The notes under the pieces: model-generated | The model's database searches: none | The model's input: only the letters and a program-made list of their open reading frames with translations | Told to the model about the DNA's origin: nothing | Shown here: piece after piece, positions 22,813-42,127 of the stretch | Layout of the letters: each line of letters begins with the position of its first letter | How positions within the stretch are numbered: the stretch's first letter is position 1 | Virus record (IMG/VR): IMGVR_UViG_3300014208_000001 | Coordinates: 1 to 64,000 of that record | Length of the DNA: 64,000 nt | DNA from: a virus | Taxonomy: Duplodnaviria > Heunggongvirae > Uroviricota > Caudoviricetes | Strand: one strand, 5' to 3' | Position numbers and translations under genes: made by a program

Positions 22813-22815
22813 TAG

Positions 22816-26020: not shown

Positions 26021-26048
26021 CTATTGCCCGAAGCTAACTTTAGGTAAA
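26021..26048 (-). promoter_or_regulatory. promoter-like motif
   Basis: TTTACC-N14-GGCAATAG. Confidence 0.68.
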
Positions 26049-26132
26049 ATAAAACTCCCCCTATCATACTCGCCACGGCAACGGCATGAATACGACAGGG
26101 GGAGCCACACAGGACCGACCAACATCAAACCG

Positions 26133-27497
26133 CTAATTGATCTCGCGAGCACTCACAGACTGATTGAACACAATCTGCAACGTAGGACGCTCCGCAACCC
26201 ACTCCAAGAAACCCTTGGAAGCCCCACTGTCACGCCGAAGTTTCACCACACGAGCAGCCAACGCCGGATTCATCGCAATCGCCAACTTGTGCTGATCAGG
26301 AGCATTCGACGACTTCACCCCCTGCACCAACTGGCGAATGAACGCAATCGCCAAATCGTTATCGTTGCCAGAACTCCGCTTATTCACCAGAACTTCAGCG
26401 AAATCCAACGCAACCTTCGCGTGCTTCTCGTCATCCACCTTGCCAGTCAAGTAACTGCTGAGACCCCACATGAGACCAGCCATCTGCGACCGGCTCAACT
26501 CACGCAACTTCTTATCCCACTGCTTGACACCATCACGCATCAAATCAGTGACCTTCACCGGACAATCGTAATTGAGGTAGGCCGACGCCACATCAGAACC
26601 GAGCAGCCCAGCCAACACCAAACGCATGGCATCATCAGGGTTGCACACCTTCTGGATAGCGGCACGAGCCCCATTCTCCATCGCGATCTTGGCACGGACA
26701 GCAGAATCCCACGAACGCCGAGACGGTTGGATGACCGTATCGTTCTTCGCGTTGTTGTTACCGTCGAGGTACTTCAGATCGGACGAAGTGAATTCGATAG
26801 CAGCGGACGCATCCAAACCGTATCGCTTACTCATGAACTGAGTCCACTCGGCGAGAGTGGTTTCGCCGGCACTGAGCGTCATGTGGCAGAAGCGATCGAG
26901 GAGGGCGGCGTCGTTAAAGCCGTTGGTGATGTATCCCTCGTTGAAATTGCCCGCCGCACACACAGCCCATCCTTCGGGGAGTGCGTATCGACCGACTTTG
27001 CGGTCGAGCACCAGTTGGAAGATGGCTTGCAGCACGTCATCGGCACCGCGATTCACTTCATCGAGGAAGAGAATTCCGTGTTCGTGGCGGGGCTGCAGTT
27101 CGAGGAAGCACGCCGAGATTTTCGTGATGTGTCGCGGGGGGAGTTTCGCGGCGATACTGGTCCAGTCGATTTCGCCGGGTTTAGAATCCTTGGGGAGGAA
27201 TTCCTTGCACCGTTCAATCACCAGCTCTTCCACTTCCATGTCGGTGAGATCGCCGATTGGCATTTCAGCGGGAGGGCAGTAGTGCGTACGGCCATCTTCG
27301 CCGCGAGTCGGGAGGCCACGAATATCGACAGCTTCCAGTTGCGAGCACCGGAGATCGACGAATCCCATTCGGGATTGTTCGCACAGTTGCTTGATCAGAC
27401 TGGATTTGCCCAGTCCGTGGACACCCCAAATGAAGGGGGTGAGTTGGGCGTGCTTGCATAGCATCACCGCACCCTGAATCTCAGAAATCCGAGCCAT
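26133..27497 (-). CDS. MoxR-like AAA+ ATPase
   Basis: Walker A GVHGLGKS, Walker B LFLDEVNR, AAGN, ALLDRF, PSRRSW; adjacent to VWA gene. Confidence 0.92.
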   Translation of the reverse strand: MARISEIQGAVMLCKHAQLTPFIWGVHGLGKSSLIKQLCEQSRMGFVDLRCSQLEAVDIRGLPTRGEDGRTHYCPPAEMPIGDLTDMEVEELVIERCKEFLPKDSKPGEIDWTSIAAKLPPRHITKISACFLELQPRHEHGILFLDEVNRGADDVLQAIFQLVLDRKVGRYALPEGWAVCAAGNFNEGYITNGFNDAALLDRFCHMTLSAGETTLAEWTQFMSKRYGLDASAAIEFTSSDLKYLDGNNNAKNDTVIQPSRRSWDSAVRAKIAMENGARAAIQKVCNPDDAMRLVLAGLLGSDVASAYLNYDCPVKVTDLMRDGVKQWDKKLRELSRSQMAGLMWGLSSYLTGKVDDEKHAKVALDFAEVLVNKRSSGNDNDLAIAFIRQLVQGVKSSNAPDQHKLAIAMNPALAARVVKLRRDSGASKGFLEWVAERPTLQIVFNQSVSAREIN

Positions 27498-27540
27498 CGC
27501 AAAAACTCCTGTGTGTTAGAAACCCAAAACCGACCCACCC

Positions 27541-27568
27541 CTATTTCAAACCCCGCCAGCCTCGTAAA
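27541..27568 (-). promoter_or_regulatory. conserved phage promoter-like motif
   Basis: TTTACG-N14-TGAAATAG. Confidence 0.75.
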
Positions 27569-27583
27569 GTCGCCCCACAAAAA

Positions 27584-27979
27584 TTATAAGGGAAGACACG
27601 CAAATTGCAATGACTCCCTCAAAGAATCAACTGAATATTCATCAAAATCAATACGTCGCATAATATCATTCACACTATCATAAATTTTTATACAATCACG
27701 CCTAACAGCCACACTAATATAAACACCACACCGATCAAATTCAAAAATATACACTTCCTGTTTAACATTATACTTCAATGAAATTTCATAATTCTCAATA
27801 ATATCAATAATATCATTCAAAACAATATTAAGAAATTCGCTCAAACATTCCAACTTCCGAACATCACATGGCACTTCACCATTGATTAATTTATAGATAT
27901 ACACACCATTATCGTCAGTCAATTTATACTCATGATAATGTATAAAGTAATCAGAAATTTTATAATAATATTGCTTCAT
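27584..27979 (-). CDS. paralogue family member
   Basis: MKQYYY...LSEFLNIVLNDI...IDFDEY. Confidence 0.72.
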   Translation of the reverse strand: MKQYYYKISDYFIHYHEYKLTDDNGVYIYKLINGEVPCDVRKLECLSEFLNIVLNDIIDIIENYEISLKYNVKQEVYIFEFDRCGVYISVAVRRDCIKIYDSVNDIMRRIDFDEYSVDSLRESLQFACLPL

Positions 27980-28338
27980 TTAACCACCATACTAGCCAAT
28001 TTCTTCCACTCTTTACAAACAGAAAAATGATCACGCAAATTAGTATAATCACATAAATTAACAGTAATTTGACGGTTCATATTCAAAGAAAATTCAATTC
28101 TATTATCAAAAACATTAATATCAACACCAATATATCCAACATTACACATAATAACACGATAATCAGGATAATTACCAATTCTGTATAATCTATTAAAACC
28201 AAACAAATCGATCAAATCATTAATCAGAATATTAAGGAAATAAGGCAAATCTTTCGCATCAACAGATGTATATTCACATTCTTGATAAATATACCAAATT
28301 TGGTGATTGATACTCTCAGAGTACTTATATTGTTTCAT
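27976..28338 (-). CDS. paralogue family member
   Basis: MKQY...FLNILINDL...VNLCDYTNL. Confidence 0.72.
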   Translation of the reverse strand: MKQYKYSESINHQIWYIYQECEYTSVDAKDLPYFLNILINDLIDLFGFNRLYRIGNYPDYRVIMCNVGYIGVDINVFDNRIEFSLNMNRQITVNLCDYTNLRDHFSVCKEWKKLASMVVK

Positions 28339-28727
28339 ACTAAATTCTCTAATACACAAGGTAAAAAACACTCACGCAAATTAACATAATCAGCCAACAT
28401 AGTAATATTAGTATAATAACTATCTTCATTAAAACACGTCACAATACGATCACTTTCAACATAAACAATAATATATGCACAAAAATTACGCTTACGTAAC
28501 GGTGATATAGAACCAACAATACCATAAGAATCGCCATACTCATAAATATGGTACTTACAATCACCAAGTAATTCAACAAATTCATTAAGTAATAAATTCA
28601 AAAAATCAGAAACAACATACTCACCACAAGAAGACAATACCCACTTTGAAACAGCAACTTTATGACTAGTAAAAGAAACCACATCAAAATAATAATTTAG
28701 CTGTTTATCAAACCGGTACTGTTTCAT
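28335..28727 (-). CDS. paralogue family member
   Basis: MKQY...SDFLNLLLNEF...LADYVNL. Confidence 0.72.
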   Translation of the reverse strand: MKQYRFDKQLNYYFDVVSFTSHKVAVSKWVLSSCGEYVVSDFLNLLLNEFVELLGDCKYHIYEYGDSYGIVGSISPLRKRNFCAYIIVYVESDRIVTCFNEDSYYTNITMLADYVNLRECFLPCVLENLV

Positions 28728-28728
28728 T

Positions 28729-29136
28729 TTAGAAATTGTACCTCTTAATAATCTCCTCATTCGCATCAACAATCACATCAGGATTAACAGCAACCACTTC
28801 ATACAACGCACAATATCCAACACCATCAACCTTCCGATAATACTCAACACCATCACTTGTACGACCACGAGCAAACAACTTATCACCAATACTCACCACA
28901 CCACTATTAACATTATCAGCACCAACCTGAATTCCAACATCACCACGCATACCAACATCAGTCAAATTAGACCCATTAATCAACCTCAAACTAGCCAACC
29001 GCATAACACCATCAGGAGTCATCACCAACTCACCATACGTAACATCAACCAACCCAGCACGAATAGGCTTCACCACAACACTAGGGGCCTCACACCCACG
29101 ATGCTCACGAGCCTTATAAATTTTCAAACTCTTCAC
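28729..29136 (-). CDS. hypothetical protein
   Basis: GTG start with GGAGG RBS. Confidence 0.65.
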   Translation of the reverse strand: MKSLKIYKAREHRGCEAPSVVVKPIRAGLVDVTYGELVMTPDGVMRLASLRLINGSNLTDVGMRGDVGIQVGADNVNSGVVSIGDKLFARGRTSDGVEYYRKVDGVGYCALYEVVAVNPDVIVDANEEIIKRYNF

Positions 29137-29190
29137 AATATCACCTCCAAAACCTATTACAAAACTAACCCCTAAAGTAAACATTAACCC

Positions 29191-29574
29191 CTAAAAGTTA
29201 AAAGCACGCCGAATATTACCAACAATATTAGCAGCACCAATAGTATTCAAAGCATTCTCATACGAAATACCACACACACAAACACATATAGCTTTCGCTA
29301 ACTCATCAATAGAATAATCACTATAACCAATAACACTAGTCGCGTGACCAGCAAGCGTAAAAACCTCCAAACACACCCCATCAACCCGCACACACACAAT
29401 ACGTATCATCGAATCATCACACATAACATTAATAGTAATACGCTCCTCACGCTCATTAATACTTAATAATAAACTATACTTATAAACTAACGTATCATTA
29501 TCAATAAACTCACACGGTGTAACTTTACTAATTGCCCTAACATCATTAACAATAAGTTCAAATAACTCACTCAT
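29191..29574 (-). CDS. paralogue family member, short form
   Basis: MSELFELIVNDV...IGYSDY. Confidence 0.7.
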   Translation of the reverse strand: MSELFELIVNDVRAISKVTPCEFIDNDTLVYKYSLLLSINEREERITINVMCDDSMIRIVCVRVDGVCLEVFTLAGHATSVIGYSDYSIDELAKAICVCVCGISYENALNTIGAANIVGNIRRAFNF

Positions 29575-29966
29575 CGAACACCATACAATCTACCAGACTC
29601 ACGAGCAAACCCCTCAACATTAGTATAAAACAAACAATTACTTTTAACATAATTAAAAATCACACCACGCAAAAAACTATAAAACTTATTAACCGAATAA
29701 TCAACCAAATTAAAATTAAAAGTATTCAAAGGCGATAAAATATTAATAACATTATCATCAACAACAACCCGAAAAGCATGCTTATTACACATCCGCCGAT
29801 TACGTTCACTTTGTTGGCAAACTTCAATTGTTATTTGATAAGACTGATTATAATTATAAGCAATATAGATATTGTCACTGACAATATCAACTGAACATTC
29901 TTTAGTAATCACAGTATATGTAAAAAGTTTTAAATCATTAATAATAATAGTATCAATTTCGCTCAC
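29571..29966 (-). CDS. paralogue family member, short form
   Basis: MSEIDTIIINDL...FNLVDY. Confidence 0.7.
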   Translation of the reverse strand: MSEIDTIIINDLKLFTYTVITKECSVDIVSDNIYIAYNYNQSYQITIEVCQQSERNRRMCNKHAFRVVVDDNVINILSPLNTFNFNLVDYSVNKFYSFLRGVIFNYVKSNCLFYTNVEGFARESGRLYGVR

Positions 29967-30295
29967 TTCTTCTTCACCTTATTCTTGAGTACAGAAAACT
30001 CTTTCCTACCTTTAGCAACTTGATTACTAAACTCCAAAACTTTAACAGTCAAACTAAAAGCAGCTTTAGACCCTGATTTAGAATAACTAATAACTCTAAT
30101 ACTAATAATATCACCCTTAATATGAACACTCATACCAACTTTACCACCATAATCGACAGTAAATAACCAATTATAAACAGGACCAATCCCACGGTGATCC
30201 CTAGAGTATTCATGAGTATCATACGTTTCATCTTTATACTTGCCAAATTGCATATCACTCTTAATAAGATCAAGCAAATCATTCACTTCGGCCAC
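29963..30295 (-). CDS. probable paralogue family member, short form
   Basis: NDLLDLIKSDM...VKVLEF. Confidence 0.55.
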   Translation of the reverse strand: MAEVNDLLDLIKSDMQFGKYKDETYDTHEYSRDHRGIGPVYNWLFTVDYGGKVGMSVHIKGDIISIRVISYSKSGSKAAFSLTVKVLEFSNQVAKGRKEFSVLKNKVKKK

Positions 30296-30651
30296 CTCAT
30301 GTATTCTAACTCAATATTATATGCATTAGCATTATATTCTCTACAAATCTTATCGAAAGTACGTAAACTATCTATTACCCCAGTGGTCAACTCAACCAAT
30401 CTGAACGTACAACTCTTAATGCATGTAATCTTAGGAGCATATTCATTAGTAGCATACGATGACATAAAAATATTACCACCTTCAAAAGCATAATCAACAC
30501 TCTCAATGAAAATCGCAACTGTTGATTTATAAAGTGTTAACTGCCACTTCAAAGCACGCTTATACTCAATAATAATAGTATCTGGCGGGCTCACTTCATA
30601 CTTAAACCCCAAACGTTCCACATCACTAATAAAAACATCAAGTAAATCCAT
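30283..30651 (-). CDS. probable paralogue family member, short form
   Basis: MDLLDVFISDV...FRLVEL. Confidence 0.55.
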   Translation of the reverse strand: MDLLDVFISDVERLGFKYEVSPPDTIIIEYKRALKWQLTLYKSTVAIFIESVDYAFEGGNIFMSSYATNEYAPKITCIKSCTFRLVELTTGVIDSLRTFDKICREYNANAYNIELEYMRWPK

Positions 30652-30665
30652 AATCCCCCCTATAT

Positions 30666-30701
30666 GAGCAAACCCACACGATTACTCATGTGGGTTTGCT
30701 C
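30666..30701. terminator. 13-bp hairpin after ORF 30722-31279
   Basis: gagcaaacccaca / tgtgggtttgctc. Confidence 0.65.
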
Positions 30702-30721
30702 CAAAATCGACAAGCCATCCC

Positions 30722-31279
30722 CTACTCGTCGACTTTGTTCATCGCAGGATCGCTGAAACCGATACCAGTCGGTTGAACAGAATTCACCTCATGATCATCG
30801 AGATCACCCATCACTTTATGAGCAAATTCACCAAGTGTATTCATTTTCTTGATTTTGACTTCTACTTTCTTACCACGAGGATAAACAATCGCAGCCAAAT
30901 CCTCAACTGACTCAATCATCACAAACTCAGTTGTACGAAACAACCCTCGCACAGTATCAATAATATGATCGACACGAGCATGATACGTGTGAATCGTATA
31001 ACTCGGTTGCTCCAATTGCCGCAACGCCACATACACACTACGCAAACCAGCCTCCAACGTACTCACATCCATCGGAATCAACGTGAGACGAGACCCGCCA
31101 TCCAACTCACCCAAACTCAAATCAGCACTAAAAGCCGATTTGATTTTCGAAAAATCAGGGATATACAACGGGTCGCTAACAGCAATCCCCCCAGGTCCCA
31201 CTTCCACCAATTTGAAATACTGGTATTCATTGAAGCTATCCAACGCTTCACTAATAACCGCATCGAGTTCAGCCATCAC
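30722..31279 (-). CDS. hypothetical protein
   Basis: 185 aa ORF; degenerate promoter motif at 31316-31343. Confidence 0.7.
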   Translation of the reverse strand: MMAELDAVISEALDSFNEYQYFKLVEVGPGGIAVSDPLYIPDFSKIKSAFSADLSLGELDGGSRLTLIPMDVSTLEAGLRSVYVALRQLEQPSYTIHTYHARVDHIIDTVRGLFRTTEFVMIESVEDLAAIVYPRGKKVEVKIKKMNTLGEFAHKVMGDLDDHEVNSVQPTGIGFSDPAMNKVDE

Positions 31280-31417
31280 TAAATCCCCAAAATGTGAAAT
31301 GTGACCATCACACTCCTCTTTCTAAACCCCACACCACCGTAAAATCAACCACCCCCAAAATTTAACCAAACCCCCAACCACAGAAAAAAAAGAGTACACC
31401 ACCATTTAGGTATAACA

Positions 31418-31855
31418 ATGATCTACGCTTACAACCCTAGCACAGACGAAATACGAAAAATCGAAAAAATCTCCAACAACTGGATACCACTACCAGAATT
31501 ATACGCAACTATCGTAGACGAAATATTCTACTGCCAAAAACTCAGAGACATCACAATCAAAGCACGATGTTACATCCACGCCACACTACAAAACGGCCAC
31601 ACTAACCATAGAATAATAATATATGTTGAAAGCAATAAACCACTCAAAGTAGAAACACGCATCGAAATCACCCAAGAAAATATCACACTCATCCACGAAA
31701 AACCAACTCACACCTTCAAAAAACCTGGTTGTTTGACCTCACACCAACGATACACATTCATGGAGTACAATAATCAAATCACCGATCTAATCAAAAATGA
31801 ACACACCAAATATCTCATCGACATCGAAACTCTCCCATTCAAAGTAAAAGAATGA
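31418..31855 (+). CDS. paralogue family member (C/A-biased)
   Basis: MIYAY...LPELYATIVDEI...YTFMEY. Confidence 0.7.
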   Translation: MIYAYNPSTDEIRKIEKISNNWIPLPELYATIVDEIFYCQKLRDITIKARCYIHATLQNGHTNHRIIIYVESNKPLKVETRIEITQENITLIHEKPTHTFKKPGCLTSHQRYTFMEYNNQITDLIKNEHTKYLIDIETLPFKVKE

Positions 31856-32217
31856 GATACTACTACTATGATAATATAATCTACGAATCATATCATGGCA
31901 AAGTAGGCTCAAGCGATATAACATATGAAGATATTGAAAGTACAATTCGATATCCATTAAGTGATTTATGGGTAATAGTTTTAACAGATTTCAAAAAATT
32001 ATGCAGCTCAATCACAACAGCACGAGTATCAAAAAACGGAACACACTTATACTTACAAGGAACAGCACATATTTATCATGGTATATATCGCAAAAATCCA
32101 GAGTATATTGTTAATTGCACACCAACTCACATATCACTAACTAGAAGTTCAAAATTGCTTTTCACACAACCACTAACAGAGTACGATGGATTTGACCGAT
32201 TTAATCACCATTATTGA
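31852..32217 (+). CDS. paralogue family member
   Basis: MRYYYY...LSDLWVIVLTDF...PLTEYDGF. Confidence 0.72.
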   Translation: MRYYYYDNIIYESYHGKVGSSDITYEDIESTIRYPLSDLWVIVLTDFKKLCSSITTARVSKNGTHLYLQGTAHIYHGIYRKNPEYIVNCTPTHISLTRSSKLLFTQPLTEYDGFDRFNHHY

Positions 32218-32506
32218 AGAAGACGTCAAAGCACATAAACGATTATTCAATAAATTATTTATGTGCCCAACTTGTAAATTCATAATTTTTAGCTTTGATA
32301 CTTCAACAAATTTCTTCATAGATTGCGAATCAGGGCATAGCATATACGGTAATATTATAATTGATAATGATAATGTAGTATTAACTATGAGAGGTGCGAG
32401 AATCTCATTCAAATTAACCGATTACTCACAATTCGAAATCGCGAACGCATTAGAATCAATCATTGATACAGTGTCAATGATTGAAATTCAAAAAACGCTC
32501 TTATAA
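32186..32506 (+). CDS. paralogue family member, short form
   Basis: LTDLITIIEEDV...FKLTDY. Confidence 0.65.
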   Translation: MDLTDLITIIEEDVKAHKRLFNKLFMCPTCKFIIFSFDTSTNFFIDCESGHSIYGNIIIDNDNVVLTMRGARISFKLTDYSQFEIANALESIIDTVSMIEIQKTLL

Positions 32507-33052
32507 ATCAACTGCGTCAATAATACTAATATTACTTTTAAACTTTCGATCTAAAATTAATTCTTTATTCGATATTTTAATTCTATTTTGAATAATTGAT
32601 TTCCCGAAATTTGCTTTTCCAAATGTTAATGATTTTTGCGGTTTGTATGAACAAGCTATGATGTACTCTTGCGCGAAACTTGTGACTTTAACTAAAATTC
32701 CCTGATAGGAAAATGCTGCTCCGACAAACAATCTAGTATTATTTCTAACTTTATAATCATAATATGCTTTTGCTATAATGTATGGTTTCCGTTTCTTCCA
32801 CGTTTCAAATGATTTAATCGCGCTCCTATTATTACAAATTATTGCATTAGTATACCATTTCTCATGATCACCTAACCAATATTGGCTTTGATACATTGTT
32901 GAGATTGATTGAAAATCTGATTCTTCGAATTTTAATTGAGCACTTATTGCTAATTCTAATGCTGATTGCATTGAAATATTTATATTAGTATATGATGATG
33001 ATTGCGTGTTATAAATTATATGTTTTAATAATTGTAATGCTGGCGATTGCAT
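32501..33052 (-). CDS. hypothetical protein
   Basis: 183 aa ORF. Confidence 0.65.
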   Translation of the reverse strand: MQSPALQLLKHIIYNTQSSSYTNINISMQSALELAISAQLKFEESDFQSISTMYQSQYWLGDHEKWYTNAIICNNRSAIKSFETWKKRKPYIIAKAYYDYKVRNNTRLFVGAAFSYQGILVKVTSFAQEYIIACSYKPQKSLTFGKANFGKSIIQNRIKISNKELILDRKFKSNISIIDAVDL

Positions 33053-33670
33053 TTAAAATATCTCATCGTGATGGTTGATAATTGTAGCCCTTTTAATTAG
33101 GTGTATACTTGTTTCTGTGTGAGTGACTTTGGTAAATTACGCTAATACCATACATATTCTGATGTTCATTTATATATATGTACGGGCATACTCGATTTCC
33201 TGTCTGGAAATACATTGTTTCGATGGGGGTTTTTAAATACTTCGTAGTATACGTCTGAATATTTATAGTAGTATTTATATAATACACTTATATATTTTAT
33301 AACCATGCGTGTATATTATGCGATTTCCTCTCTGGAAACATCGAATACTATTGATATAATATTCAACTCGTTTGTATAGTATTGTATAGTGCTCGAAATG
33401 GGTCAGAGCGAGTTAGGTCCGTCGATTAGAGCGATTTGATGCGGTGGGAGAGCGTTTAGTATATATTCGGAAGCAAATTTACTTTATCGCTAATAGAGTG
33501 TGTGGTAGGTAGTTCTTCTTCTCTCTTCTTTATTTTTTATTATGTTTTTGTTATTTCTTTGGATATTGATGAAATTTTGTTTATTGGGCCTTGATGGGTC
33601 GCTCATGATGATAGATGGTTAAAAGTTAAATAAGATTATTTTGGTATTTTATTATGTTGGTGGTGTACTC
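33053..33670. other. putative replication origin region
   Basis: ~600-bp AT-rich gap without a credible ORF; at the skew switch; repeated CGATTTCCTSTCTGGAAA and AGAGCG. Confidence 0.5.
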
Positions 33671-33673
33671 TTG

Positions 33674-33886
33674 TTAGTATAGTGATAGTAGTTTTGTGTG
33701 TGCTTCTTTTATGTGGTGTTCTATGTTGGTGTAGTATTTTAGTGGTATGTTGGTGTAGTCTTTTAGTGGTATGTTGGTTATGTTTTGTGGTTGGTGTTTG
33801 TGGATTTGGAGTTTGGTGTGGTTTATGTATATGTCTATTTGGTGGGTTGGGTTTGTTGTGGGGGTTTTGTTTTTGATGTGGTACAT
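33674..33886 (-). pseudogene. truncated paralogue with internal 24-bp duplication
   Basis: IDIYINHTKLQI...TNIPLKDY-TNIPLKYY-TNIEHHIKE resembles the family C-terminus. Confidence 0.45.
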
Positions 33887-33896
33887 GGGTGGGTGT

Positions 33897-33924
33897 TTTA
33901 CGGGCGTTTGGTGTGTTGTAAAAG
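33897..33924 (+). promoter_or_regulatory. promoter-like motif heading the G/T block
   Basis: TTTACG-N14-TGTAAAAG; GTG start 7 nt later. Confidence 0.65.
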
Positions 33925-33930
33925 GGTTGG

Positions 33931-34275
33931 GTGAGGTTTTTTAGGAGTGTGAGTGGTTCGGTTGTGGTGTTGAGGGGTGATGAGTATTTTTATTTGAGTG
34001 GGTTTTTGTGTAAGTGGGATGCTGAGTTGGTTGGGTTGGTTGAGTTGGGGGTTTTGTGTGGGGTGGTGGTTGGTGATTTTGTTGGGTTGATGGATGAGGT
34101 TGTTGGTAAGGTTAATGGTGATTGGGTGATGGTTGGTGGTCGGTGTGGGGATGTTAGGTTGGTTGTGGATTGTGGTGGGGAGGGTGTGAGGTTTTGGAGG
34201 TATTGTGGTGGGGTTTGTGTTGGGTCTGGGTTTGTGGGGTGGGTTGATTTTGTGGGTGTTGGGGGTTTGTTGTGA
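33931..34275 (+). CDS. paralogue family member (extreme G/T bias)
   Basis: LGVLCGVVVGDF...WVDFVGVGGLL. Confidence 0.72.
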   Translation: MRFFRSVSGSVVVLRGDEYFYLSGFLCKWDAELVGLVELGVLCGVVVGDFVGLMDEVVGKVNGDWVMVGGRCGDVRLVVDCGGEGVRFWRYCGGVCVGSGFVGWVDFVGVGGLL

Positions 34276-34619
34276 GGTTTTATTATGATGATAATGGGTA
34301 TGTGGTGAGGTTGGTGGGGGATGATTATTTTTATTTGAATGGGGAGGTGGCTGGTGGGGTTGTGGGTGGGGTTGGGGATGTGTTTAGTGTGGTTGTGGGT
34401 GAGTTTGTTGGGTTGGTGGATGAGGTGTATTATGATGATTTTTATGTTAATGGTGATGGTTGTTATTTGAGTTTGCGTGGGGTTGTTGGTGGGGGTGTGT
34501 ATATTATGTGTGATTGTTCTCCTTTGGGTGGGGTTGTGACTGTTGTGGCTGTGGATGGTACGTCTAGGAGTTCTGGTTTTTTGTGGGTTGATTTTGTGGG
34601 TGTTGGGGGTTTGTTGTGA
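34272..34619 (+). CDS. paralogue family member (G/T)
   Basis: MRFYY...GDVFSVVVGEF...WVDFVGVGGLL. Confidence 0.75.
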   Translation: MRFYYDDNGYVVRLVGDDYFYLNGEVAGGVVGGVGDVFSVVVGEFVGLVDEVYYDDFYVNGDGCYLSLRGVVGGGVYIMCDCSPLGGVVTVVAVDGTSRSSGFLWVDFVGVGGLL

Positions 34620-35005
34620 GGTTTTATGTTAATGAGCGTATGTGTGTGGTGATGTTTGATGATGTTGTTGGTGATTATTTTTATTTGACTAATGAGTGGT
34701 GTGGGTATGAGTATGGTGATAGGCATAGGTTGGTTGAGTTGGGTGAGTTGTTTTCTTTGGTTGTTGGTGAGGTTTTGAGGTTGTCTGGTGGTGGTGTTGA
34801 GCATTATGTTATTGGTAGTTTGTGTGTTGATGGTGGTGTTTTGCGGGTTTGTGATGTTTCTAAGTTTAAGGTGGTGTTGTATACTAAGTGTAAGGTGTTT
34901 CGTGGTGTTAAGTGTATGTGTGATGGGGTTAGGATTTTGGTGAATGGTAGGTGGGGTGGTTTGGTTAGGTGGTGTGATTTTGTGAGTGTTGAGGGTTTAT
35001 TGTGA
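34616..35005 (+). CDS. paralogue family member (G/T)
   Basis: LGELFSLVVGEV...WGGLVRWCDFVSVEGLL. Confidence 0.75.
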   Translation: MRFYVNERMCVVMFDDVVGDYFYLTNEWCGYEYGDRHRLVELGELFSLVVGEVLRLSGGGVEHYVIGSLCVDGGVLRVCDVSKFKVVLYTKCKVFRGVKCMCDGVRILVNGRWGGLVRWCDFVSVEGLL

Positions 35006-35346
35006 GGGTTTATTATACTGAGTGGGGTAATTTGGTTAAGTTGGTTGGTGGGAAGTATTATTATTTTGGTGGGTTGGATGTTTGTGATGTGGATTTTGTT
35101 TGTGGTGAGGTTGAGAGTTTGTTTGTGGTGGTTGTGGGTGAGTTTGTTGAGTTGATGGATAGGGTTACTTATGGTGATCGTCATGGGTGTTTTGATGTGT
35201 ATGTGAGTGGGTTTTTGGGTGGTGTTGAGTATGCTGTTGCGTGTAATGATATTGGGGTGTTTGTGTCTAGGAATAGGCCGTTTGGGTGGAGTGATATTGG
35301 GTTTGTGAGGTGGGTTGATTTTGTTGGTGTTGGGGGTTTGTTGTGA
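35002..35346 (+). CDS. paralogue family member (G/T)
   Basis: ESLFVVVVGEF...WVDFVGVGGLL. Confidence 0.75.
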   Translation: MRVYYTEWGNLVKLVGGKYYYFGGLDVCDVDFVCGEVESLFVVVVGEFVELMDRVTYGDRHGCFDVYVSGFLGGVEYAVACNDIGVFVSRNRPFGWSDIGFVRWVDFVGVGGLL

Positions 35347-35684
35347 GGTATTATTCTATGTGTGGTACTATTGTTATGGTGAGGGGTGGTGTGTATTATT
35401 ATTTGAATGGTGAGTATTGTAGTATTGTTGGTGATGTTGGTGAGATTTGTGATGTTTATAGTTTGGTTATTGATGATTGTTTGGATCATTGTTCTAAGGT
35501 TGGTGGGCGTGTGTGTCAGGTGGTGTGTCAATATGGTGTGGTTATGGTGCATTGGGTTTATAATGGGATGTTCGTTGGAGTTAAGTGTGATAAGGTTGGT
35601 GTTTATGTTGTTAATGGGTGGGGTTGTCCGTGGGGTGGTTTGGTTAGGTGGTGTGATTATGTGAGTATTGAGGGTTTGTTGTGA
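35343..35684 (+). CDS. paralogue family member (G/T)
   Basis: MRYY...CDVYSLVIDDC...WCDYVSIEGLL. Confidence 0.75.
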   Translation: MRYYSMCGTIVMVRGGVYYYLNGEYCSIVGDVGEICDVYSLVIDDCLDHCSKVGGRVCQVVCQYGVVMVHWVYNGMFVGVKCDKVGVYVVNGWGCPWGGLVRWCDYVSIEGLL

Positions 35685-36031
35685 GGTATTATATTAGGAA
35701 TGGTTATAATGTTATTCTTTTTAAAAATGGGTATTATTATCGTTTGAATGGTGTGTGGTGTGGGTTGGATTATGTGGTTTTGCGTGATGCGGTTGTTTTG
35801 GGTGATGTTTATACTTTGGTTTTTGATGAGTTTTTGAGTATTGCTTGTGGTGCGTATGGGAGTGTTAATTATGATGATTCTGTTGATGTTTATGGTGATT
35901 TTGATGGGGTGGTGGTTGGTATTAAAGTTGATGATTTTGGGGTTCGTTTTGCTCGTGATTGTAGTATGGTGACTTGGTGGGGTGGTTTGGTTAGGTGGTG
36001 TGATTTTGTGAGCGTTGAGGGTTTGTTATGA
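35681..36031 (+). CDS. paralogue family member (G/T)
   Basis: MRYY...LGDVYTLVFDEF...WCDFVSVEGLL. Confidence 0.75.
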   Translation: MRYYIRNGYNVILFKNGYYYRLNGVWCGLDYVVLRDAVVLGDVYTLVFDEFLSIACGAYGSVNYDDSVDVYGDFDGVVVGIKVDDFGVRFARDCSMVTWWGGLVRWCDFVSVEGLL

Positions 36032-36381
36032 GGTTTTTTAGTACTTGTGGGCATGTTGTTTATTTGGTTGATGGTGAGTATTATTGGTTTGCTGGTGGGC
36101 GTTGTTCTGCTGCTGATATTTCTGAGTATGTTTTGACTGAGTTGAATGAGCTTTTTTCGTTGGTATGTTGTGATTTTGTTGGGTTGGTTAGTGATAGGTG
36201 GGATGGTAAGTTGTATAATGATTGGCCGTTTTTTCCGACGCAGACGTTGGTTTTGAAAGGTAATTTTGGTGTTATTGGTGTTAAGGTTTTGTGCAATAGT
36301 GATGGGGTGGTGATTAGGACTGGTGATGGTGAGTGTGCTTTTTTGTGGAGTGAGTTTAGTGGTTTGCGTGGGTTATTGTGA
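36028..36381 (+). CDS. paralogue family member (G/T)
   Basis: LNELFSLVCCDF...WSEFSGLRGLL. Confidence 0.75.
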   Translation: MRFFSTCGHVVYLVDGEYYWFAGGRCSAADISEYVLTELNELFSLVCCDFVGLVSDRWDGKLYNDWPFFPTQTLVLKGNFGVIGVKVLCNSDGVVIRTGDGECAFLWSEFSGLRGLL

Positions 36382-36713
36382 AGTATATTAAGACTTTTGA
36401 TGGGTGTGTTGGTTTTGTGAGTGGTGGTGAGTATATTATATATGATTGTGGTAGTCAGAGGTATGAGGATGTTGGTTCATTTGAGTTTATTGGTGATTTT
36501 TATGATGTGTTTGTTGGTGATTTTGTGGGGTTTGTTGATGATGTTAGGTTTATTAGGATTTTGCGTGGTGGGCAGTTGATGTTAGGTGGGTTTGTTGGTG
36601 ATATGAATGTTATTGTTATGGTTGGTGATGATATTAAGGTGACTTTTGGTGGTGATAGTTGGGTTATTTGTTTTAGTGATTATGGAGGGTTTTGTGAAGT
36701 TTGCGCTACTTAA
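36378..36713 (+). CDS. paralogue family member (G/T)
   Basis: GDFYDVFVGDF...ICFSDY. Confidence 0.72.
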   Translation: MKYIKTFDGCVGFVSGGEYIIYDCGSQRYEDVGSFEFIGDFYDVFVGDFVGFVDDVRFIRILRGGQLMLGGFVGDMNVIVMVGDDIKVTFGGDSWVICFSDYGGFCEVCAT

Positions 36714-37068
36714 TAATGATAGTGTTGTTGAGGTGCGGGGTGGTAATATGTTGTTTTGGTTGCATGATCCTTTTAGGGGTAAGTTTATAGATGGTGGTGG
36801 TTTTATTTATGATTTTGTTGATAATGAGTTGTTTGAGTTGATATTGAATGATTTTATGGATTTTGTCGGTGATGGTGGGTTATGTTCTGATATTCGTATT
36901 GATGATGGTGTTTTGAAGGTTTGTGGTAAGATTTCTGGTAAGTGGACTAAGGTGTGTGTTGATGGTGGTGTAATTTCTGTTTCTAAGTGTTGGACGTCTG
37001 ATGGTGTTACTAGTGATGTTCGTTTTTGTAAGGTTGGTGAGTTTGTGTGTTTGAGGGGTTTGTTATGA
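36694..37068 (+). CDS. paralogue family member (G/T)
   Basis: GTG start after GGAGG; NELFELILNDF...GEFVCLRGLL. Confidence 0.72.
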   Translation: MKFALLNNDSVVEVRGGNMLFWLHDPFRGKFIDGGGFIYDFVDNELFELILNDFMDFVGDGGLCSDIRIDDGVLKVCGKISGKWTKVCVDGGVISVSKCWTSDGVTSDVRFCKVGEFVCLRGLL

Positions 37069-37442
37069 TTGATATGGTTATTGTTGATTTGTTTAAGAGG
37101 AAGTTGATTGGTACGTGTCCTGATCTTTGGGTTTCTGCTGAGATTTATAAAGGGGTGCCGATTAGTACTAAACCTATTGTATCTATATTTATTGCTAATG
37201 CTTCTGGTGGTGCGTGGAGTTGTATTGGTGATTGTGTTATTTATGATAGTAGTATTGTTGCTGAGTTGAAAACTATTGGTGGTATTGAGACTAGTTTTAA
37301 TGATCGTGATAAGGTTTCGTTTGATTTGGGTGATATGGATGTTTTGGATAGGTTGTTTGAGTATGTGGTGTGTCGGGCTCGTGAGTGTGATGGGGCGTTT
37401 AAACGTCTTCGTCGTAAGTCATGGGAGTCGCGTTATAAATGA
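37065..37442 (+). CDS. hypothetical protein, possibly divergent family member
   Basis: ATGA-coupled; VSFDLGDM. Confidence 0.6.
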   Translation: MIDMVIVDLFKRKLIGTCPDLWVSAEIYKGVPISTKPIVSIFIANASGGAWSCIGDCVIYDSSIVAELKTIGGIETSFNDRDKVSFDLGDMDVLDRLFEYVVCRARECDGAFKRLRRKSWESRYK

Positions 37443-37857
37443 AGTCGGTTATGGTTGTGTAGTCTGATAGTAGTATTTTGTTTGTTTTGCGGCATATTCC
37501 GTTATTATAGGTTGGTATCATTAGTTCTATTATTTTTTCTGTGATTGTTAGTGTTATTTTGTTGTTGTGTAGCTCTCCTGCTATGATTAGTGATTCTTCT
37601 ATGTTTAGTGATGTGGCGGTGGGGGTTCCGCGTATTCGTCTTTCTATTTTGGCTAGTCTGTTAATTAGTATTTCGGTGTCTGTTAGTATGATTTGGTGGA
37701 GTGGGTTGGTTATTGGCTGGGTGGTGTGGTTTGTATCGAATAGTCTGTGTCCGTCTAGTAAGTTGAGTGGGTTTATTGTGACTATGTAGTTGTAGTAACT
37801 GTTTGATTGTGTTACGTTTCCGTATCGTACTGTGGCGTTTATTATTATATGGTACAT
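37399..37857 (-). CDS. paralogue family member (coding strand C/A-biased)
   Basis: TNPLHQIILTDT...ILLSDYTTI. Confidence 0.72.
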   Translation of the reverse strand: MYHIIINATVRYGNVTQSNSYYNYIVTINPLNLLDGHRLFDTNHTTQPITNPLHQIILTDTEILINRLAKIERRIRGTPTATSLNIEESLIIAGELHNNKITLTITEKIIELMIPTYNNGICRKTNKILLSDYTTITDFIYNATPMTYDEDV

Positions 37858-38216
37858 ATGTGGTCCTTTAGTGTTGTGAATTCTGATAGGGGTATTTTTA
37901 GTATGTCTGGGGTAATTTGGGATTCGAATACTATTTGTGTGTCTGTTATCGATATGTATAGTCGTCCTAGCATTGGTAATTGATGATATGTGCCGCTTAT
38001 TCTTAGGTATGATAATAATAGTGCGGTTGGTTCTATGAGTGTTTGTTTTGCTTCGTTTAGTAGGAGTTCGTGGAGCGGGTTATCGATTGGTTTGGTTTGG
38101 TGCATTAATCCATTGTGTATTATTGTTCCGTTGAATTTTTTATGTGGGTTTAGTGTTATTATGTGGCCTTGTAAATTGGCTTGGTATACTTTATTGGTTA
38201 TTACGTGATATTTCAT
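37845..38216 (-). CDS. paralogue family member
   Basis: MKYH...NPLHELLLNEA...IPLSEF. Confidence 0.72.
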   Translation of the reverse strand: MKYHVITNKVYQANLQGHIITLNPHKKFNGTIIHNGLMHQTKPIDNPLHELLLNEAKQTLIEPTALLLSYLRISGTYHQLPMLGRLYISITDTQIVFESQITPDILKIPLSEFTTLKDHICTI

Positions 38217-38583
38217 TTATTTCTTTCAGGTGTTTTTCTATTGTTGTGTATGTGTGGTATGGTATTTTGTAGGTGATATCGGATGTTGACATTGATAGTG
38301 AAGTTTCGTTTAATCGTATAGATACTATATTATTATTGTATATTCCTGTTATGTGGCACCCGGCTCGTATCATTGCTGATGTTATTGTTATTGTGTTTTC
38401 TATATCGTTTATAATTAGTGAGTATATGCTGTCGTTGTCTATCTCTTCAAAATTATAATGTTTATTTAGTGGTACATTTGATAATAGTCTTAGTGGGTTT
38501 AATTTTACTATGTATCCTATTTTATCGTTTGCGTATTCTACGCCATTTTCAGTGTATGATATGTTTGTTATTTTGTAGTACAT
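38191..38583 (-). CDS. paralogue family member
   Basis: SIYSLIINDI...IPYHTYTTI. Confidence 0.72.
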   Translation of the reverse strand: MYYKITNISYTENGVEYANDKIGYIVKLNPLRLLSNVPLNKHYNFEEIDNDSIYSLIINDIENTITITSAMIRAGCHITGIYNNNIVSIRLNETSLSMSTSDITYKIPYHTYTTIEKHLKEINEISRNNQ

Positions 38584-39005
38584 TGATATGCTTCGGTTAA
38601 GTGTTTGGTGATTGAGGTGTATTCTGAGTACTTGATTTCGAATATTTTGTGGCGGATGTGTATAATGATGCGAGCTTGTGTTAAAAATATTAATAAACTG
38701 TGTATTACGTTATCGATTTTGTATTTTGCTTGTATTCTGATATCATCATCATAATTTATACCTGGTATGATGCTTGTTTGTGCGTCAAAGTCTAATATTG
38801 TAGCTGATATAATTGTTATTTCTTTTTCTTTTAATATATCTGATATAACAATGGTGTATAAATCATTGTTTAATGGTCTGTAAGTATGATATGCTAAGCA
38901 GACAACATCTCCTGATAATAATTTGCTTGATTCTAACTGTATTATACGTCCATATAGAGAGCTGGTAACTGTGGAACTTTCAATAGTTGTTATTATACAA
39001 AACAT
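38568..39005 (-). CDS. paralogue family member
   Basis: NDLYTIVISDI...IKYSEY. Confidence 0.72.
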   Translation of the reverse strand: MFCIITTIESSTVTSSLYGRIIQLESSKLLSGDVVCLAYHTYRPLNNDLYTIVISDILKEKEITIISATILDFDAQTSIIPGINYDDDIRIQAKYKIDNVIHSLLIFLTQARIIIHIRHKIFEIKYSEYTSITKHLTEAYQCTTK

Positions 39006-39010
39006 ATTAT

Positions 39011-39448
39011 TTATTGCTTTGGTTGATACGTTGGTATAATTTTTTGAATTGATTGTTCTAATATTTGTTTATCATATTCTATTAAGTTTATTGTGTGTTG
39101 TACGCCTGTGCTCTTGGCTGCATAAGCTAATTTATGTGAGTGACTTGTATCTGTTGAGTTCATATATATTCTTTTGTCTGTGATTGTGATTACAAGTCGT
39201 ATTACGTCTATCGTACTTATTATTTGCAATTGACGTTGATTGTCGAATACTTCGGCGTATATTATTTTTAATAATTTTGAGATATCTTGCAATAATAAAA
39301 TGTGTATTGGGTTTTTCAATGGGTATATTTTTAGTACTGGTGATGTTTCTATATGTGTTCCATTTAGTAATACTATGAAATCATTTGATTTTGTTGCTAT
39401 TCTTCCGTCGTATCTGTTAATTACGTGGTCTTCGATTATGTAGTACAT
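39011..39448 (-). CDS. paralogue family member
   Basis: NPIHILLLQDI...INLIEY. Confidence 0.72.
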   Translation of the reverse strand: MYYIIEDHVINRYDGRIATKSNDFIVLLNGTHIETSPVLKIYPLKNPIHILLLQDISKLLKIIYAEVFDNQRQLQIISTIDVIRLVITITDKRIYMNSTDTSHSHKLAYAAKSTGVQHTINLIEYDKQILEQSIQKIIPTYQPKQ

Positions 39449-39849
39449 TTTATGATTTCGATCAACCTTTCTAATGTGTAATCGGTGTAATGCAATGCTG
39501 TGTAATTATTATTTGTGTTTATTTCTAAAAATGTTGGACCTATTACTATTGTTGTTGGTAAAAAAGTTGGCAGCGTATCACACGGTGTTGTGTCTAGTAA
39601 TAATCTTGGTGTTTTAACCATTAAGTAGTGTGCTGATACAATTTTGACGATTTGTGATACATCATTGATAATTGTATTTTCTAGATCATTTAATTTTCGT
39701 GCTTCGACTGTTTTTATAGGTACTGATATGTCTCCATTGAAGCTAACGTAATTTTCTCCTATTTGTGTTACTATTTCATCATATAGTACGTATACTGAAT
39801 TGTTTGTACTTTGTATTGGCCTTTTTTGTAGTTCGTAGTATATTTTCAT
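39436..39849 (-). CDS. paralogue family member
   Basis: LNDLENTIINDV...LHYTDY. Confidence 0.72.
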   Translation of the reverse strand: MKIYYELQKRPIQSTNNSVYVLYDEIVTQIGENYVSFNGDISVPIKTVEARKLNDLENTIINDVSQIVKIVSAHYLMVKTPRLLLDTTPCDTLPTFLPTTIVIGPTFLEINTNNNYTALHYTDYTLERLIEIIKCTT

Positions 39850-40199
39850 ATTATATTTTTTAATTTTTGTGGGGTGTATTCTGATAATCGTATTAGTTTT
39901 TTAAATGTTAAATCAACTCTTATTACAATTTCTGAGTTTGTAATACAGATGTGTAATCGTGTTGATTTATTGTTGCCGGTTAGGACGATTGAATTAGTAT
40001 TATCGATTGCGTATCCGTTACAGACAGTGTATAGTTTAATGACGTCATTTAATATTACTTGATATACATCACTTAATATAATTAAGTGTTTTGTGTCTGG
40101 GGGTAGTAAGTATGGCGATAATGTATAAATGTCATTGTTTAATTCGTAAACAATTTGATTATTGTATAGTTTGTTGTCTTTGATTACGTAATAGATCAT
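39846..40199 (-). CDS. paralogue family member
   Basis: LSDVYQVILNDV...IRLSEY. Confidence 0.75.
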   Translation of the reverse strand: MIYYVIKDNKLYNNQIVYELNNDIYTLSPYLLPPDTKHLIILSDVYQVILNDVIKLYTVCNGYAIDNTNSIVLTGNNKSTRLHICITNSEIVIRVDLTFKKLIRLSEYTPQKLKNII

Positions 40200-40546
40200 A
40201 AATTTGTATACTCTAATAGTGGTATTGTTTCATTTACGTATTTGTCTAATTTATATGATAATGGTGATGCTTTTGATATTTTTATTTCTTTATCTGTTAC
40301 TACTATAGTCATGTGAATATATTCATCAGAAGTACCATAAATATGTAATCTGTTATTGTTTAATGTGGCGCATCTTATACTCATTGCTTCTAGTGCGTCG
40401 TTTATGATTATGTTATATATTATCGGTACTTTTATCATTTTTGATTTTGTTGCTATTCCTCGGGTTGTTCCGTGTATGGTTTTTGTGAAATAATTTTGTA
40501 TGTATACTATTTCTGATGTTGGCGAATAGATATAATGGTCTCTCAT
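40196..40546 (-). CDS. paralogue family member
   Basis: PIIYNIIINDA...YKLDKY. Confidence 0.72.
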   Translation of the reverse strand: MRDHYIYSPTSEIVYIQNYFTKTIHGTTRGIATKSKMIKVPIIYNIIINDALEAMSIRCATLNNNRLHIYGTSDEYIHMTIVVTDKEIKISKASPLSYKLDKYVNETIPLLEYTNL

Positions 40547-40932
40547 AGTTTGCGTTTGCATGCTTTTTTGAGTGTTTCGTATGAATAATTAATTAGTTTT
40601 ATGCGGTTTTCGTATGTTTCAGTTGGTGATAATCTTGATATTATGATGGTATCTATTAGGATTGTTATTGATATTAATTTGGGAGCTGATGCGAGTATAT
40701 TGATGCTTTCGATACTTTCATTTTGTAGAAGGGGTAAATTTGCGCCGGTGGCTGACTCTATTGATTTAGATATTTTATGTATATCATTTAATATGATTTG
40801 GTTTATGTTGTTTAATTTGATTAATGGGATAGTTTGTATACCACCTGATAATGATAATGCTCCGCACATATTATAGTAGGACCCATTTACTTTGGTCACT
40901 ATTGTTCTGTCATGTAAATAGTATGTTTTCAT
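40543..40932 (-). CDS. paralogue family member
   Basis: MKTYY...LNNINQIILNDI...IKLINY. Confidence 0.72.
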   Translation of the reverse strand: MKTYYLHDRTIVTKVNGSYYNMCGALSLSGGIQTIPLIKLNNINQIILNDIHKISKSIESATGANLPLLQNESIESINILASAPKLISITILIDTIIISRLSPTETYENRIKLINYSYETLKKACKRKL

Positions 40933-41348
40933 AATTTGATGTATGATAATCCTAAATTTTTGATTACTTCTTTGATTGATGGTAATTTTTCATAGTCAGT
41001 CATATTTATTTTATATATATAAGTGTAGCTATATGGATTGAGTATTATATTTATTCCTGATGGGAGCATGTTTACTTTTATTTCTCCTGTGAGTCCTGGG
41101 TACGTACCATAAATTGATAAATTGTTTGTATTATGGCAGTATGTTCCTGATTTCACATGCATTATTTTATGGGCGTCGAATATTATTATTTGGCAGAATG
41201 CGTCTAATAACACGATATTAGGTGAATTTATGTTTATTTTGCTTAGTGTTATTTTATTGAGTGTTTTGTATTTGGTTCGTTTGCGGTATACAATATGTGT
41301 ATTGTTCTCATTTGTTTCGTCATTTATGTAATAATAGTTTGTGGTCAT
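40929..41348 (-). CDS. paralogue family member
   Basis: LDAFCQIIIFDA...INMTDY. Confidence 0.72.
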   Translation of the reverse strand: MTTNYYYINDETNENNTHIVYRKRTKYKTLNKITLSKININSPNIVLLDAFCQIIIFDAHKIMHVKSGTYCHNTNNLSIYGTYPGLTGEIKVNMLPSGINIILNPYSYTYIYKINMTDYEKLPSIKEVIKNLGLSYIKL

Positions 41349-41356
41349 GTGATTCT

Positions 41357-41384
41357 TTTACAACGCATGTTTAATTTGTAATAT
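41357..41384 (+). promoter_or_regulatory. promoter-like motif between divergent blocks
   Basis: TTTACA-N14-TGTAATAT; ATG 7 nt later. Confidence 0.62.
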
Positions 41385-41390
41385 GTGACT

Positions 41391-41714
41391 ATGGAACGCA
41401 GAGTATATTATGAAACGACTTTTGGTGAAGTTGTTATAAAGTGTGGTATCTTTCATTATACGCTTAGTGATAGATGGTGTATTGATCCTATTGAAGGTGA
41501 AGTAAATGAGATTTATACTGTTTTGATTGATGATATTGTTGAATATTTGAGCAGTATTTTATCTGTTTATATTGATCATGATGATCGATTAATGTTTGAA
41601 GGACGTAAGGATAATGAAGTGGTTCATGGTAATGTTGATGATTCAATTTTTACCATGACAGTTGGCCAGAAACAAATTACTGTGACACTTGATCAATACG
41701 CGGGACTCAAATGA
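41391..41714 (+). CDS. paralogue family member
   Basis: RVYY...VNEIYTVLIDDI...VTLDQY. Confidence 0.75.
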   Translation: MERRVYYETTFGEVVIKCGIFHYTLSDRWCIDPIEGEVNEIYTVLIDDIVEYLSSILSVYIDHDDRLMFEGRKDNEVVHGNVDDSIFTMTVGQKQITVTLDQYAGLK

Positions 41715-42127
41715 TTATTTTCACGAGAGATACTTATTTTACTAATATTCAACCATGGATTTATAATGGTAAAATATTAACCAATCCTGTGCGAGATTCT
41801 GATATTATTTTGGGCGAGATACACCAGATTATTCTTAATTATATATTTACGTTTTGTTTAAAGCATGGTTTGGATTGTAATAGCCAATTAGTTCATTGTT
41901 TTGATTCTGCTGATGTAATTGATATTGGTGTTCATAGCGTAAATGCGGATGATTCTGTTGCTCTCATTTTTAATTTACAAATTACTAATATTGGTATTTT
42001 ACTGTATGTTGATTCTTATCGTACTGGGGTTGATATTGATTACTCTCCAACTTTTGCTGAGTTAGATTTTGATATGCTCACTGGGCATTTGGAATCATGT
42101 TTAGATGATTGTGATGTGGGCACATGA
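41711..42127 (+). CDS. paralogue family member
   Basis: LGEIHQIILNYI...PTFAEL. Confidence 0.68.
   Translation: MIIFTRDTYFTNIQPWIYNGKILTNPVRDSDIILGEIHQIILNYIFTFCLKHGLDCNSQLVHCFDSADVIDIGVHSVNADDSVALIFNLQITNIGILLYVDSYRTGVDIDYSPTFAELDFDMLTGHLESCLDDCDVGT

Follow-up and report, generated by a model that had tools for sequence, protein, structure and literature searches.

In vertebrate mitochondrial DNA (mtDNA), the strand displaced during replication loses C and A in proportion to the time it remains unpaired; the effect is strongest at fourfold-degenerate sites, independent of the strand on which genes lie, and alters amino-acid composition, and its spontaneous deamination spectrum includes both C-to-T and A-to-G changes (PMC3269012). 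In huge phages, GC-skew patterns of bidirectional and unidirectional replichores have been described (PMC7162821). Long direct terminal repeats (DTRs) are represented by XacN1, whose 65,875-bp DTR was revealed by doubled coverage in a collapsed assembly, in a paper that does not mention skew (PMC5852040), and by PA5oct, with an early-gene-rich DTR of 39 kb (PMC7318152). Here, we analyzed bases 1-64000 (the window) of the complete 355.7-kb virus record IMGVR_UViG_3300014208_000001, whose ends overlap by 123 bp, and characterized a strand asymmetry that changes sign near 33 kb. In T4, circularly permuted ends leave no local mark, and to our knowledge the regeneration of long DTRs of the T5, SPO1 and XacN1 type, as well as end-initiated replication, is poorly worked out, with no direct treatment in the literature that we could find. 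Nor did we find a report of this skew pattern in the literature searched. The feature is in kind a known process, strand-specific deamination in asymmetric synthesis, whose setting here is new and whose strength is unusual.

A sequence-only reading of the window had pointed to a near-absence of C and a shortage of A on the + strand at 33961-34440, and to a near-absence of G at 31321-31380. Both counts are exact (C=4, A=54, G=226, T=196 for the former; a single G for the latter). The same reading held that the bias ignores coding direction, which is also correct: the + genes at 31418-32217 are C/A-rich (A334 C183 G98 T185), and the minus-strand block at 37399-41348 lies on a G/T-rich + strand (A925 C424 G803 T1798). 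To take protein constraint out of the comparison, we read fourfold-degenerate sites on the + strand (Table 1). At 33.9-36.1 kb, 342 of 344 such sites are G or T (binomial P ~1e-102), and the G+T fraction of + genes at 33.9-36.4 kb is 0.98-1.00, compared with a background of 0.43 in + genes and 0.49 in minus genes. The minus genes at 37.4-41.3 kb follow the same bias, the first ones (37.4-38.2 kb) at 0.94-0.96 and the remainder at about 0.8; for the two anti-oriented genes at 37399-38216, the binomial P is 3e-26. Beyond the outer-arm tail, the fraction returns to ~0.5 past 44 kb, and the decay outward from the edge near 33.6 kb (edge b) has a logit slope of -0.42 per kb and a Spearman coefficient of -0.88. 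On the left, minus genes at 27.6-31.3 kb show 0.04-0.23 and + genes at 31.4-32.2 kb show 0.14-0.20. The divergent gene junctions at 31.3 and 41.4 kb carry no skew switch, and the direction of transcription is therefore not the driver of the bias. Local GC skew reaches up to 0.9, far above ordinary replication skew, as had been claimed; in the rest of the genome, skew is mainly of the coding-strand type. The further claim that the bias peaks at the switch and fades with distance holds for the right arm, but not for the left, which is weaker, lowest at 28.7-29.9 kb and extends through a whole block of the genome described below.

The asymmetry is real, positional and clade-wide. A second assembly matches over 20 kb bar one single-nucleotide polymorphism (SNP) and one 24-bp repeat unit, and one Logan contig in each of two deep runs, which may be the source sample of the phage, covers 23.6-33.75 kb across the sign change, with overlapping contigs reaching 43.6 kb. 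Because these assemblies agree across the switch and the same pattern is found in different phage species, an assembly artefact is excluded.

The substitution spectrum is that of prolonged exposure of single-stranded DNA (ssDNA), in line with the earlier proposal. On the G/T strand, A/(A+G) is 0.017 at the peak vs 0.75 in the background, an A/G odds shift of ~190-fold, and C/(C+T) is 0/225 vs 0.25. With increasing distance from edge b, A/(A+G) takes values of 0.017, 0.15, 0.29, 0.49, 0.47 and 0.73, and C/(C+T) of 0, 0.014, 0.036, 0.073, 0.14 and 0.26, reaching background at 44-50 kb. Odds ratios for C loss are equal in all four 5' contexts (0.18, 0.18, 0.19, 0.20), and those for A loss range over 0.18-0.35 by context, with small counts. 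The C-to-T and A-to-G shifts thus fall on the same strand, graded and independent of gene orientation, as in mtDNA. C and A deaminate on single-stranded DNA, and from this chemistry we infer that the strand losing both is the one left single-stranded; the absence of a context preference favors spontaneous deamination of a displaced strand over a motif-specific enzyme. The setting differs from mtDNA in that the replicon is a double-stranded DNA phage with a DnaE/DnaB/primase replisome, and in that four arms at two edges, the outward ones local (~10 kb), take the place of one genome-wide gradient from OH/OL.

The switch is not the sole center of the bias, as the earlier reading had assumed, but one of two edges of a GC-richer block with a mirror gradient 39 kb away. 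The block spans 38.9 kb, from genome ~350.4 kb (edge a) through the record start to ~33.6 kb, at a GC content of 0.437 vs 0.331 outside. A second extreme, with a C/A-rich + strand, lies outside edge a (genome 342-350 kb): over the last 4 kb before the edge, + genes have a fourfold G+T of 0.06 and minus genes of 0.16, and the extreme ends abruptly at ~350.4 kb, where GC rises from 0.35 to 0.6. Inside the block, fourfold G+T drops from 0.59 beside edge a to 0.20 near edge b. The outward arms at both edges and the inward arm at b are strong, and the inward arm at a is weak. The C/A-to-G/T polarity is that of a bidirectional origin, as in replichore GC skew, and to this extent the origin interpretation stands; it fails as a lone origin, given a decay over 10 kb, a second edge of the same sign 39 kb away and no opposite terminus switch seen across the genome.

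The block is probably a long DTR collapsed in the circular assembly. In the two Logan runs, the contig ending at 33751 has a depth of 63.2/61.6 vs 38.6/34.7 for the 65-kb contig to its right, corresponding to ratios of 1.64 and 1.78 at 33.75 kb (one figure per contig; edge a uncovered). A soil strain shows a depth of ~6 to the left of edge b and 4 or less to its right. Short contigs at 33.75-36.0 kb have depths of 16-28 at a GC of 0.425 vs 0.414 for the deep contig; because depth is low there at equal GC, the step is not accounted for by GC bias or by a peak of coverage at an origin. The block consists of small, early-type genes and holds 6 of the 8 tRNAs of the genome. In long-DTR phages, the collapsed repeat shows up as about twofold depth and is packed with small genes and tRNAs, and in XacN1 and PA5oct the DTR is, like this block, GC-richer than the unique region (0.528/0.487 and 0.365/0.309, respectively). 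A small-gene, GC-distinct block fits the T5/SPO1/XacN1 type, which is supportive, not diagnostic.

Of 13 TTTCC-N5-GGAAA palindromes in the genome, 11 fall inside the block (window 1986, 2461, 15434, 22165, 33196 and 33324; genome 351651-353296), with outliers at 89446 and 89984; the copy at 351651 lies just upstream of a start codon, and the motif, which clusters within the block in every relative examined, is possibly an early-gene operator or cassette element. At edge a, a single-copy, non-coding element (L016:14284-14410, genome 350284-350410) ends in CC(A/C)ATACTTA and is conserved at the left block edge in seven genomes; the flat genomes G005 and G007 match it weakly at their block edges. 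A match outside model training, near-identical to G003, has a G+T of 0.34 outside and 0.58 inside, compared with 0.50 +/- 0.03 for 74 chance pattern hits. This element is a candidate terminase or repeat-end signal. The G003 and G014 contigs start or stop within 60-500 bp of it, a weak hint of fixed ends at the repeat boundary. Separately, a third, weaker C/A-rich patch at genome 269-282 kb (L012) affects both gene strands, with fourfold G+T down to 0.17, but lacks a G/T arm as counterpart. Within it, 134 bp are 84% similar to window 4427-4560; the patch may have been relocated from an edge, or may mark a minor site of initiation.

Table 1. Features of the window that bear on the strand asymmetry (G+T values refer to fourfold-degenerate sites on the + strand unless stated otherwise)
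Feature	Position	Strand	Description
Window part of GC-richer block, inferred long DTR	1..33600		G+T by fifths 0.48, 0.42, 0.41, 0.24, 0.26
Inner arm	27584..32506		+ strand C/A-rich (minus strand G/T-rich) in minus genes 27584-31279 and + genes 31418-32506
Sign change	32500..32900		Cumulative G+T lowest at 32556; change point by maximum likelihood at 32881
Intergenic gap with inferred right DTR end	33053..33930		AT-rich; holds palindromes and promoter-like element
TTTCC-N5-GGAAA palindrome	33196..33210		Motif clusters in the block here and in relatives
Second TTTCC-N5-GGAAA palindrome	33324..33338		Last before the inferred end
Rough bracket of inferred physical right end (edge b)	33570..33751		Strain contig stops at 33570, high-depth contig at 33751; approximate
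24-bp tandem repeat	33722..33769	+	One unit fewer in second assembly
Promoter-like TTACG-N14-TGTAA element	33895..33925		Upstream of + array
Outer-arm peak, ten small + genes	33931..37442	+	G+T 0.95-1.00; nine family members with 41-60% G/V/F/C/W
Ten minus-strand paralogues, internal orientation control	37399..41348	-	+ strand G/T-rich (0.74-0.96); most biased members 34-41% T/N/H/K/Q/P
Outer-arm tail	41385..43922	+	G+T 0.65-0.83; background by ~44.3 kb

Next, we compared the window phage (G000 in what follows) with relatives at ~50% DnaB identity, which were recovered by DnaB alignment, whereas the AAA gene, DnaB and the 30722-31279 gene as single-protein queries returned no close relatives in viral or metagenome contigs. 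Open reading frames of the relatives were called by our own heuristic, and single-gene values there can be wrong. Both block edges are seen in G001, G002, G013 and G003 (the outer flank of G003 being taken from the near-identical L277), with gradients across the block in G001, G002 and G003; L089, G012 and G014 show a single edge. Block sizes are 36.6 kb (G001, reversed), 14.2 kb (G002), 32.3 kb (G003) and 11.2 kb (G013); the repeats predicted in G001, G002 and G013 lie at about 240.5-277.1, 183.3-197.5 and 132.9-144.1 kb, respectively. Just outside b, fourfold G+T is 0.94 in G001, 0.83 in G002, 0.78 in G003 and 0.70 in G013, and just outside a, it is 0.08 in G001, 0.21 in G002 and 0.24 in G013; through the G002 block, it passes in order through 0.74, 0.52, 0.44, 0.28 and 0.15. 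In L089, which is syntenic, the peak lies on the same side of the AAA/DUF2201 genes, and the array is coded on the C/A strand. As a separate observation, G004 (L185-L196), whose partial contig does not include the block, shows patchy 2-kb G+T swings of 0.34-0.64 along its length.

The mapped ends of cultured XacN1 provide an external comparison. All four signs recur there, weakly, with 2-kb G+T values of 0.58, 0.45, 0.56 and 0.44 (baseline 0.50 +/- 0.026). Genes diverge at the junction outside b, and gene orientation is therefore a confound for everything but the decay; over the co-oriented genes outside b, fourfold G+T declines from 0.69 to 0.45. The gradient is several-fold weaker than in the window phage.

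Taken together, we consider it probable that the window phage carries a ~39-kb DTR and that the asymmetry records strand-displacement synthesis from its edges, inward from duplication of the repeat and outward from end-primed replication. DNA synthesis would restart repeatedly at the two fixed edges and displace the parental strand over several kilobases while lagging-strand synthesis trails behind. For the inward arms, the DTR would be duplicated at maturation by strand displacement from a bottom-strand nick at b, exposing the bottom strand leftward, and from a top-strand nick at a, exposing the top strand rightward, through the repeat; such nicks would account for the signs and the block-long span of these arms. 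For the outward arms, 3' ends (top strand at b, bottom strand at a) may invade or anneal to another DTR copy and prime leading-strand synthesis. To the right of b this would displace the top strand, and to the left of a the bottom strand, which accounts for the outward signs. The phage encodes DnaE, DnaB, primase, SSB, UvsX and SbcC/SbcD, plus a UvsW-like helicase candidate; UvsX, SSB and SbcCD could be the tools for end invasion or annealing. This set resembles that of T4 recombination-dependent replication (UvsX, SSB, a gp46/47-like nuclease and the UvsW-like candidate), in which outward synthesis primed by 3' ends gives the sign observed here, although this phage has DnaE rather than a family B polymerase, and its end priming is putative. 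Unlike those of T4, the ends would be fixed, which would let the mark accumulate at fixed places. Two related schemes were rejected: if end resection did no more than bare 3' overhangs, the main arms would have the opposite sign, and protein-primed linear replication does not agree with a sequence that lacks an inverted terminal repeat and whose assembly continues across the switch.

Several observations weigh against this explanation. The long-DTR phages T5, SPO1 and CBB have no gradient, and PA5oct and K have at most a faint one. A sister clade (G005/G006/G007) has the block and the palindromes, yet its skew is nearly flat, which indicates that a DTR alone is insufficient. In the DnaB tree (unrooted, with G000 on a long branch), one well-supported branch parts skewed from flat genomes; genes common to G001 and G002 but missing from G005/G006 included no obvious cause of the skew, and slower lagging-strand priming in the skewed clade is our guess at what underlies the difference. 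Resected 3' tails predict an opposite sign just inside the ends, but a zone of this kind (~1 kb) is found only in G000 and probably L089, and is absent from G001, G002, G003 and G013. The A-to-G shift is stronger than expected from the slower deamination of A, though mtDNA shows both changes. Finally, the DTR is deduced from per-contig depth with a ratio <2, in contigs that break at a repeat and in runs whose origin as the source sample is a possibility; the depth data cover edge b of the window phage.

The main rival, which we regard as unlikely, invokes ordinary cis origins, bidirectional at b (e.g., transcript-primed) and mainly one-way at a, either flanking an early-gene island or located at DTR edges without use of the physical ends, where late primosome loading would expose the lagging-strand template; it extends the origin interpretation of the sequence-only reading to two sites. 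Two such origins would give the same four signs, that at b being the sign of a bidirectional origin. The AT-rich gap beside b contains palindromes as well as a promoter-like element, a cis element is conserved at edge a, and the replisome is of the Pol III type. Yet cis origins leave unexplained the depth step, the block-long inner gradient (14 kb in G002, 39 kb here) and the agreement with the mapped ends of XacN1. Edge-b sequences do not align across all relatives and revealed no conserved origin sequence besides the palindrome, and the TTACG-N14-TGTAA element is also found at other junctions without a skew switch. A single bidirectional origin with two replichores is further contradicted by an outer arm that ends by 44 kb.

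A localized mutator was one of two options in the sequence-only reading; an enzymatic form, in which a phage or host ssDNA cytidine deaminase together with an adenine deaminase acts at the edges, appears improbable. The size of the A/G odds shift speaks for it, as does the one Zn-deaminase gene of the genome (90001-90432, 143 aa), which the two outlier palindromes adjoin. Neighbor preference, however, is absent for C and A loss alike, and in a motif scan the HxE..PCxxC deaminase motif occurs in skewed G000/G001 and flat G005/G006, but was not found in skewed G002. Uracil-DNA glycosylase (UDG) was undetected in G000, whereas four relatives (G001, G002, G005 and G006) each have one near uvsX/dnaB. 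Loss of UDG was rejected as the cause, as G001 and G002 are skewed despite keeping it; it may add to the extreme skew of G000. All five genomes tested encode a dUTPase. Any such enzyme would in addition still require ssDNA at these sites. A diversity-generating retroelement calls for a template and variable repeat (TR/VR) pair with A-specific changes and a reverse transcriptase. The self-BLAST gave no near-identical TR/VR-like pair in the zone, where C is lost too; reverse transcriptase was not searched. As a side observation, two helix-turn-helix (HTH) plus Mom-family proteins (window 57194-58756, genome 240312-242027) point to possible adenine modification or homing-type elements, and adenine modification could bear on the A-to-G rate.

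Still more doubtful, by a small degree, is an explanation by mutation associated with transcription from divergent promoters, or by selection acting on the structure of RNA, protein or DNA, such as ejection or packaging signals. The blocks at 27.6-31.3 kb and 33.9-37.4 kb do have the G/T strand as their coding strand, and a promoter-like element lies at 33.9 kb. However, thirteen anti-oriented genes track position instead of strand, the two divergent junctions lack a switch and the L089 peak array is coded on the opposite strand, and selection can hardly account for silent sites that decay smoothly over 10 kb; this reading is already largely refuted. An assembly or sequencing artefact, or a chimeric join at 33 kb, is a practically negligible prospect: contigs do fragment and depth dips at 33.7-36.0 kb, but reading frames are intact and the evidence given above covers the switch.

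The asymmetry extends to proteins. An iterative profile identified ~90 small paralogues across the genome (92 in the flank count), whose G/V/F/C/W content correlates with coding-strand fourfold G+T (Spearman 0.82) and whose T/N/H/K/Q/P content correlates inversely (-0.80). Paralogues in the gradient take its composition according to the strand from which they are read: the extremes (G/V/F/C/W vs T/N/H/K/Q/P) are 60%/3% at 33931 and 3%/49% at genome 348604. In the L089 peak array, with its opposite-strand coding, members have 50-56% T/N/H/K/Q/P, the extremes combining 2-3% G/V/F/C/W with 54-56% T/N/H/K/Q/P. The skewed flanks, 7% of the genome, hold 40 of the 92 paralogues, which are tandem copies and not independent. 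That the array sits in a hypermutable zone is a conjecture: equilibrium composition fixes the forward/reverse rate ratio alone, so that a raised mutation rate does not follow, and 52 of the 92 paralogues lie outside the skewed flanks. Soil-strain contigs, with little cover at 33.6-36.3 kb, diverge by 0.1-3.6% with no trend over distance, and their SNP spectrum is unpolarized (A>G 46, G>A 42, C>T 31, T>C 33). The paralogue profile had no match in 14 DnaB relatives, a search of a 1.84-billion-protein library returned 56 hits, mostly the phage's own genes, and PHROGs held no family for the two members queried. Within the family, the tandem array at 33931-36381 shows ~64% DNA-level similarity, with near-identical junction repeats that break contigs, and was probably recently amplified or homogenized.

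The phage was detected in groundwater runs, and no RNA datasets carrying the stretch were listed. It is a jumbo myophage with a T4-like sheath, portal and baseplate hub. It has no close cultured relative, the best cultured matches being ~27% for DnaB and, across a portion of the sheath, 36-40%, and terminase matches to cultured phages (24-30%) are too distant for assignment of a packaging type. A DUF1559 prepilin-type protein is encoded at L001:12038-13198 (genome 72038-73198), which we take as a hint of a Planctomycetota host; the host of this uncultured clade is possibly of that phylum. Inside the block, an AAA ATPase is paired with a DUF2201 vWA/metallopeptidase (window 24587-27497); the AAA gene has a high GC content and a weaker skew (0.39) than its neighbors, which may mean a recent arrival. 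ARAGORN called a tRNA-Ser with an unusual ACT anticodon at window 44168-44249, which overlaps a promoter-like junction and may be a false call.

If the ~39-kb DTR is true, the virion genome would measure about 395 kb, not 356 kb. The strand-resolved record at both edges makes explicit predictions of the sites at which nicking or displacement occurs and of the strand involved, and a weak, testable form is available in cultured XacN1. Collapsed DTRs in 'circular' metagenomic phage genomes may be recognizable from this pattern even where reads are lacking, and such switches should not be taken for simple origins. With one family ranging from 3% to 60% G/V/F/C/W by strand and position, the pattern is also a clear natural example of how mutation pressure shapes protein composition. 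More broadly, and tentatively, as a possibility we place somewhat below even, this phage clade may duplicate terminal repeats of 11-39 kb and start replication at fixed ends by long, uncoupled strand-displacement synthesis, with ssDNA exposure as long as that in mitochondria; the four-arm gradient would then record the nick and 3'-end priming sites and act as a positional diversifier, pushing a ~90-member family to opposite compositions by orientation.

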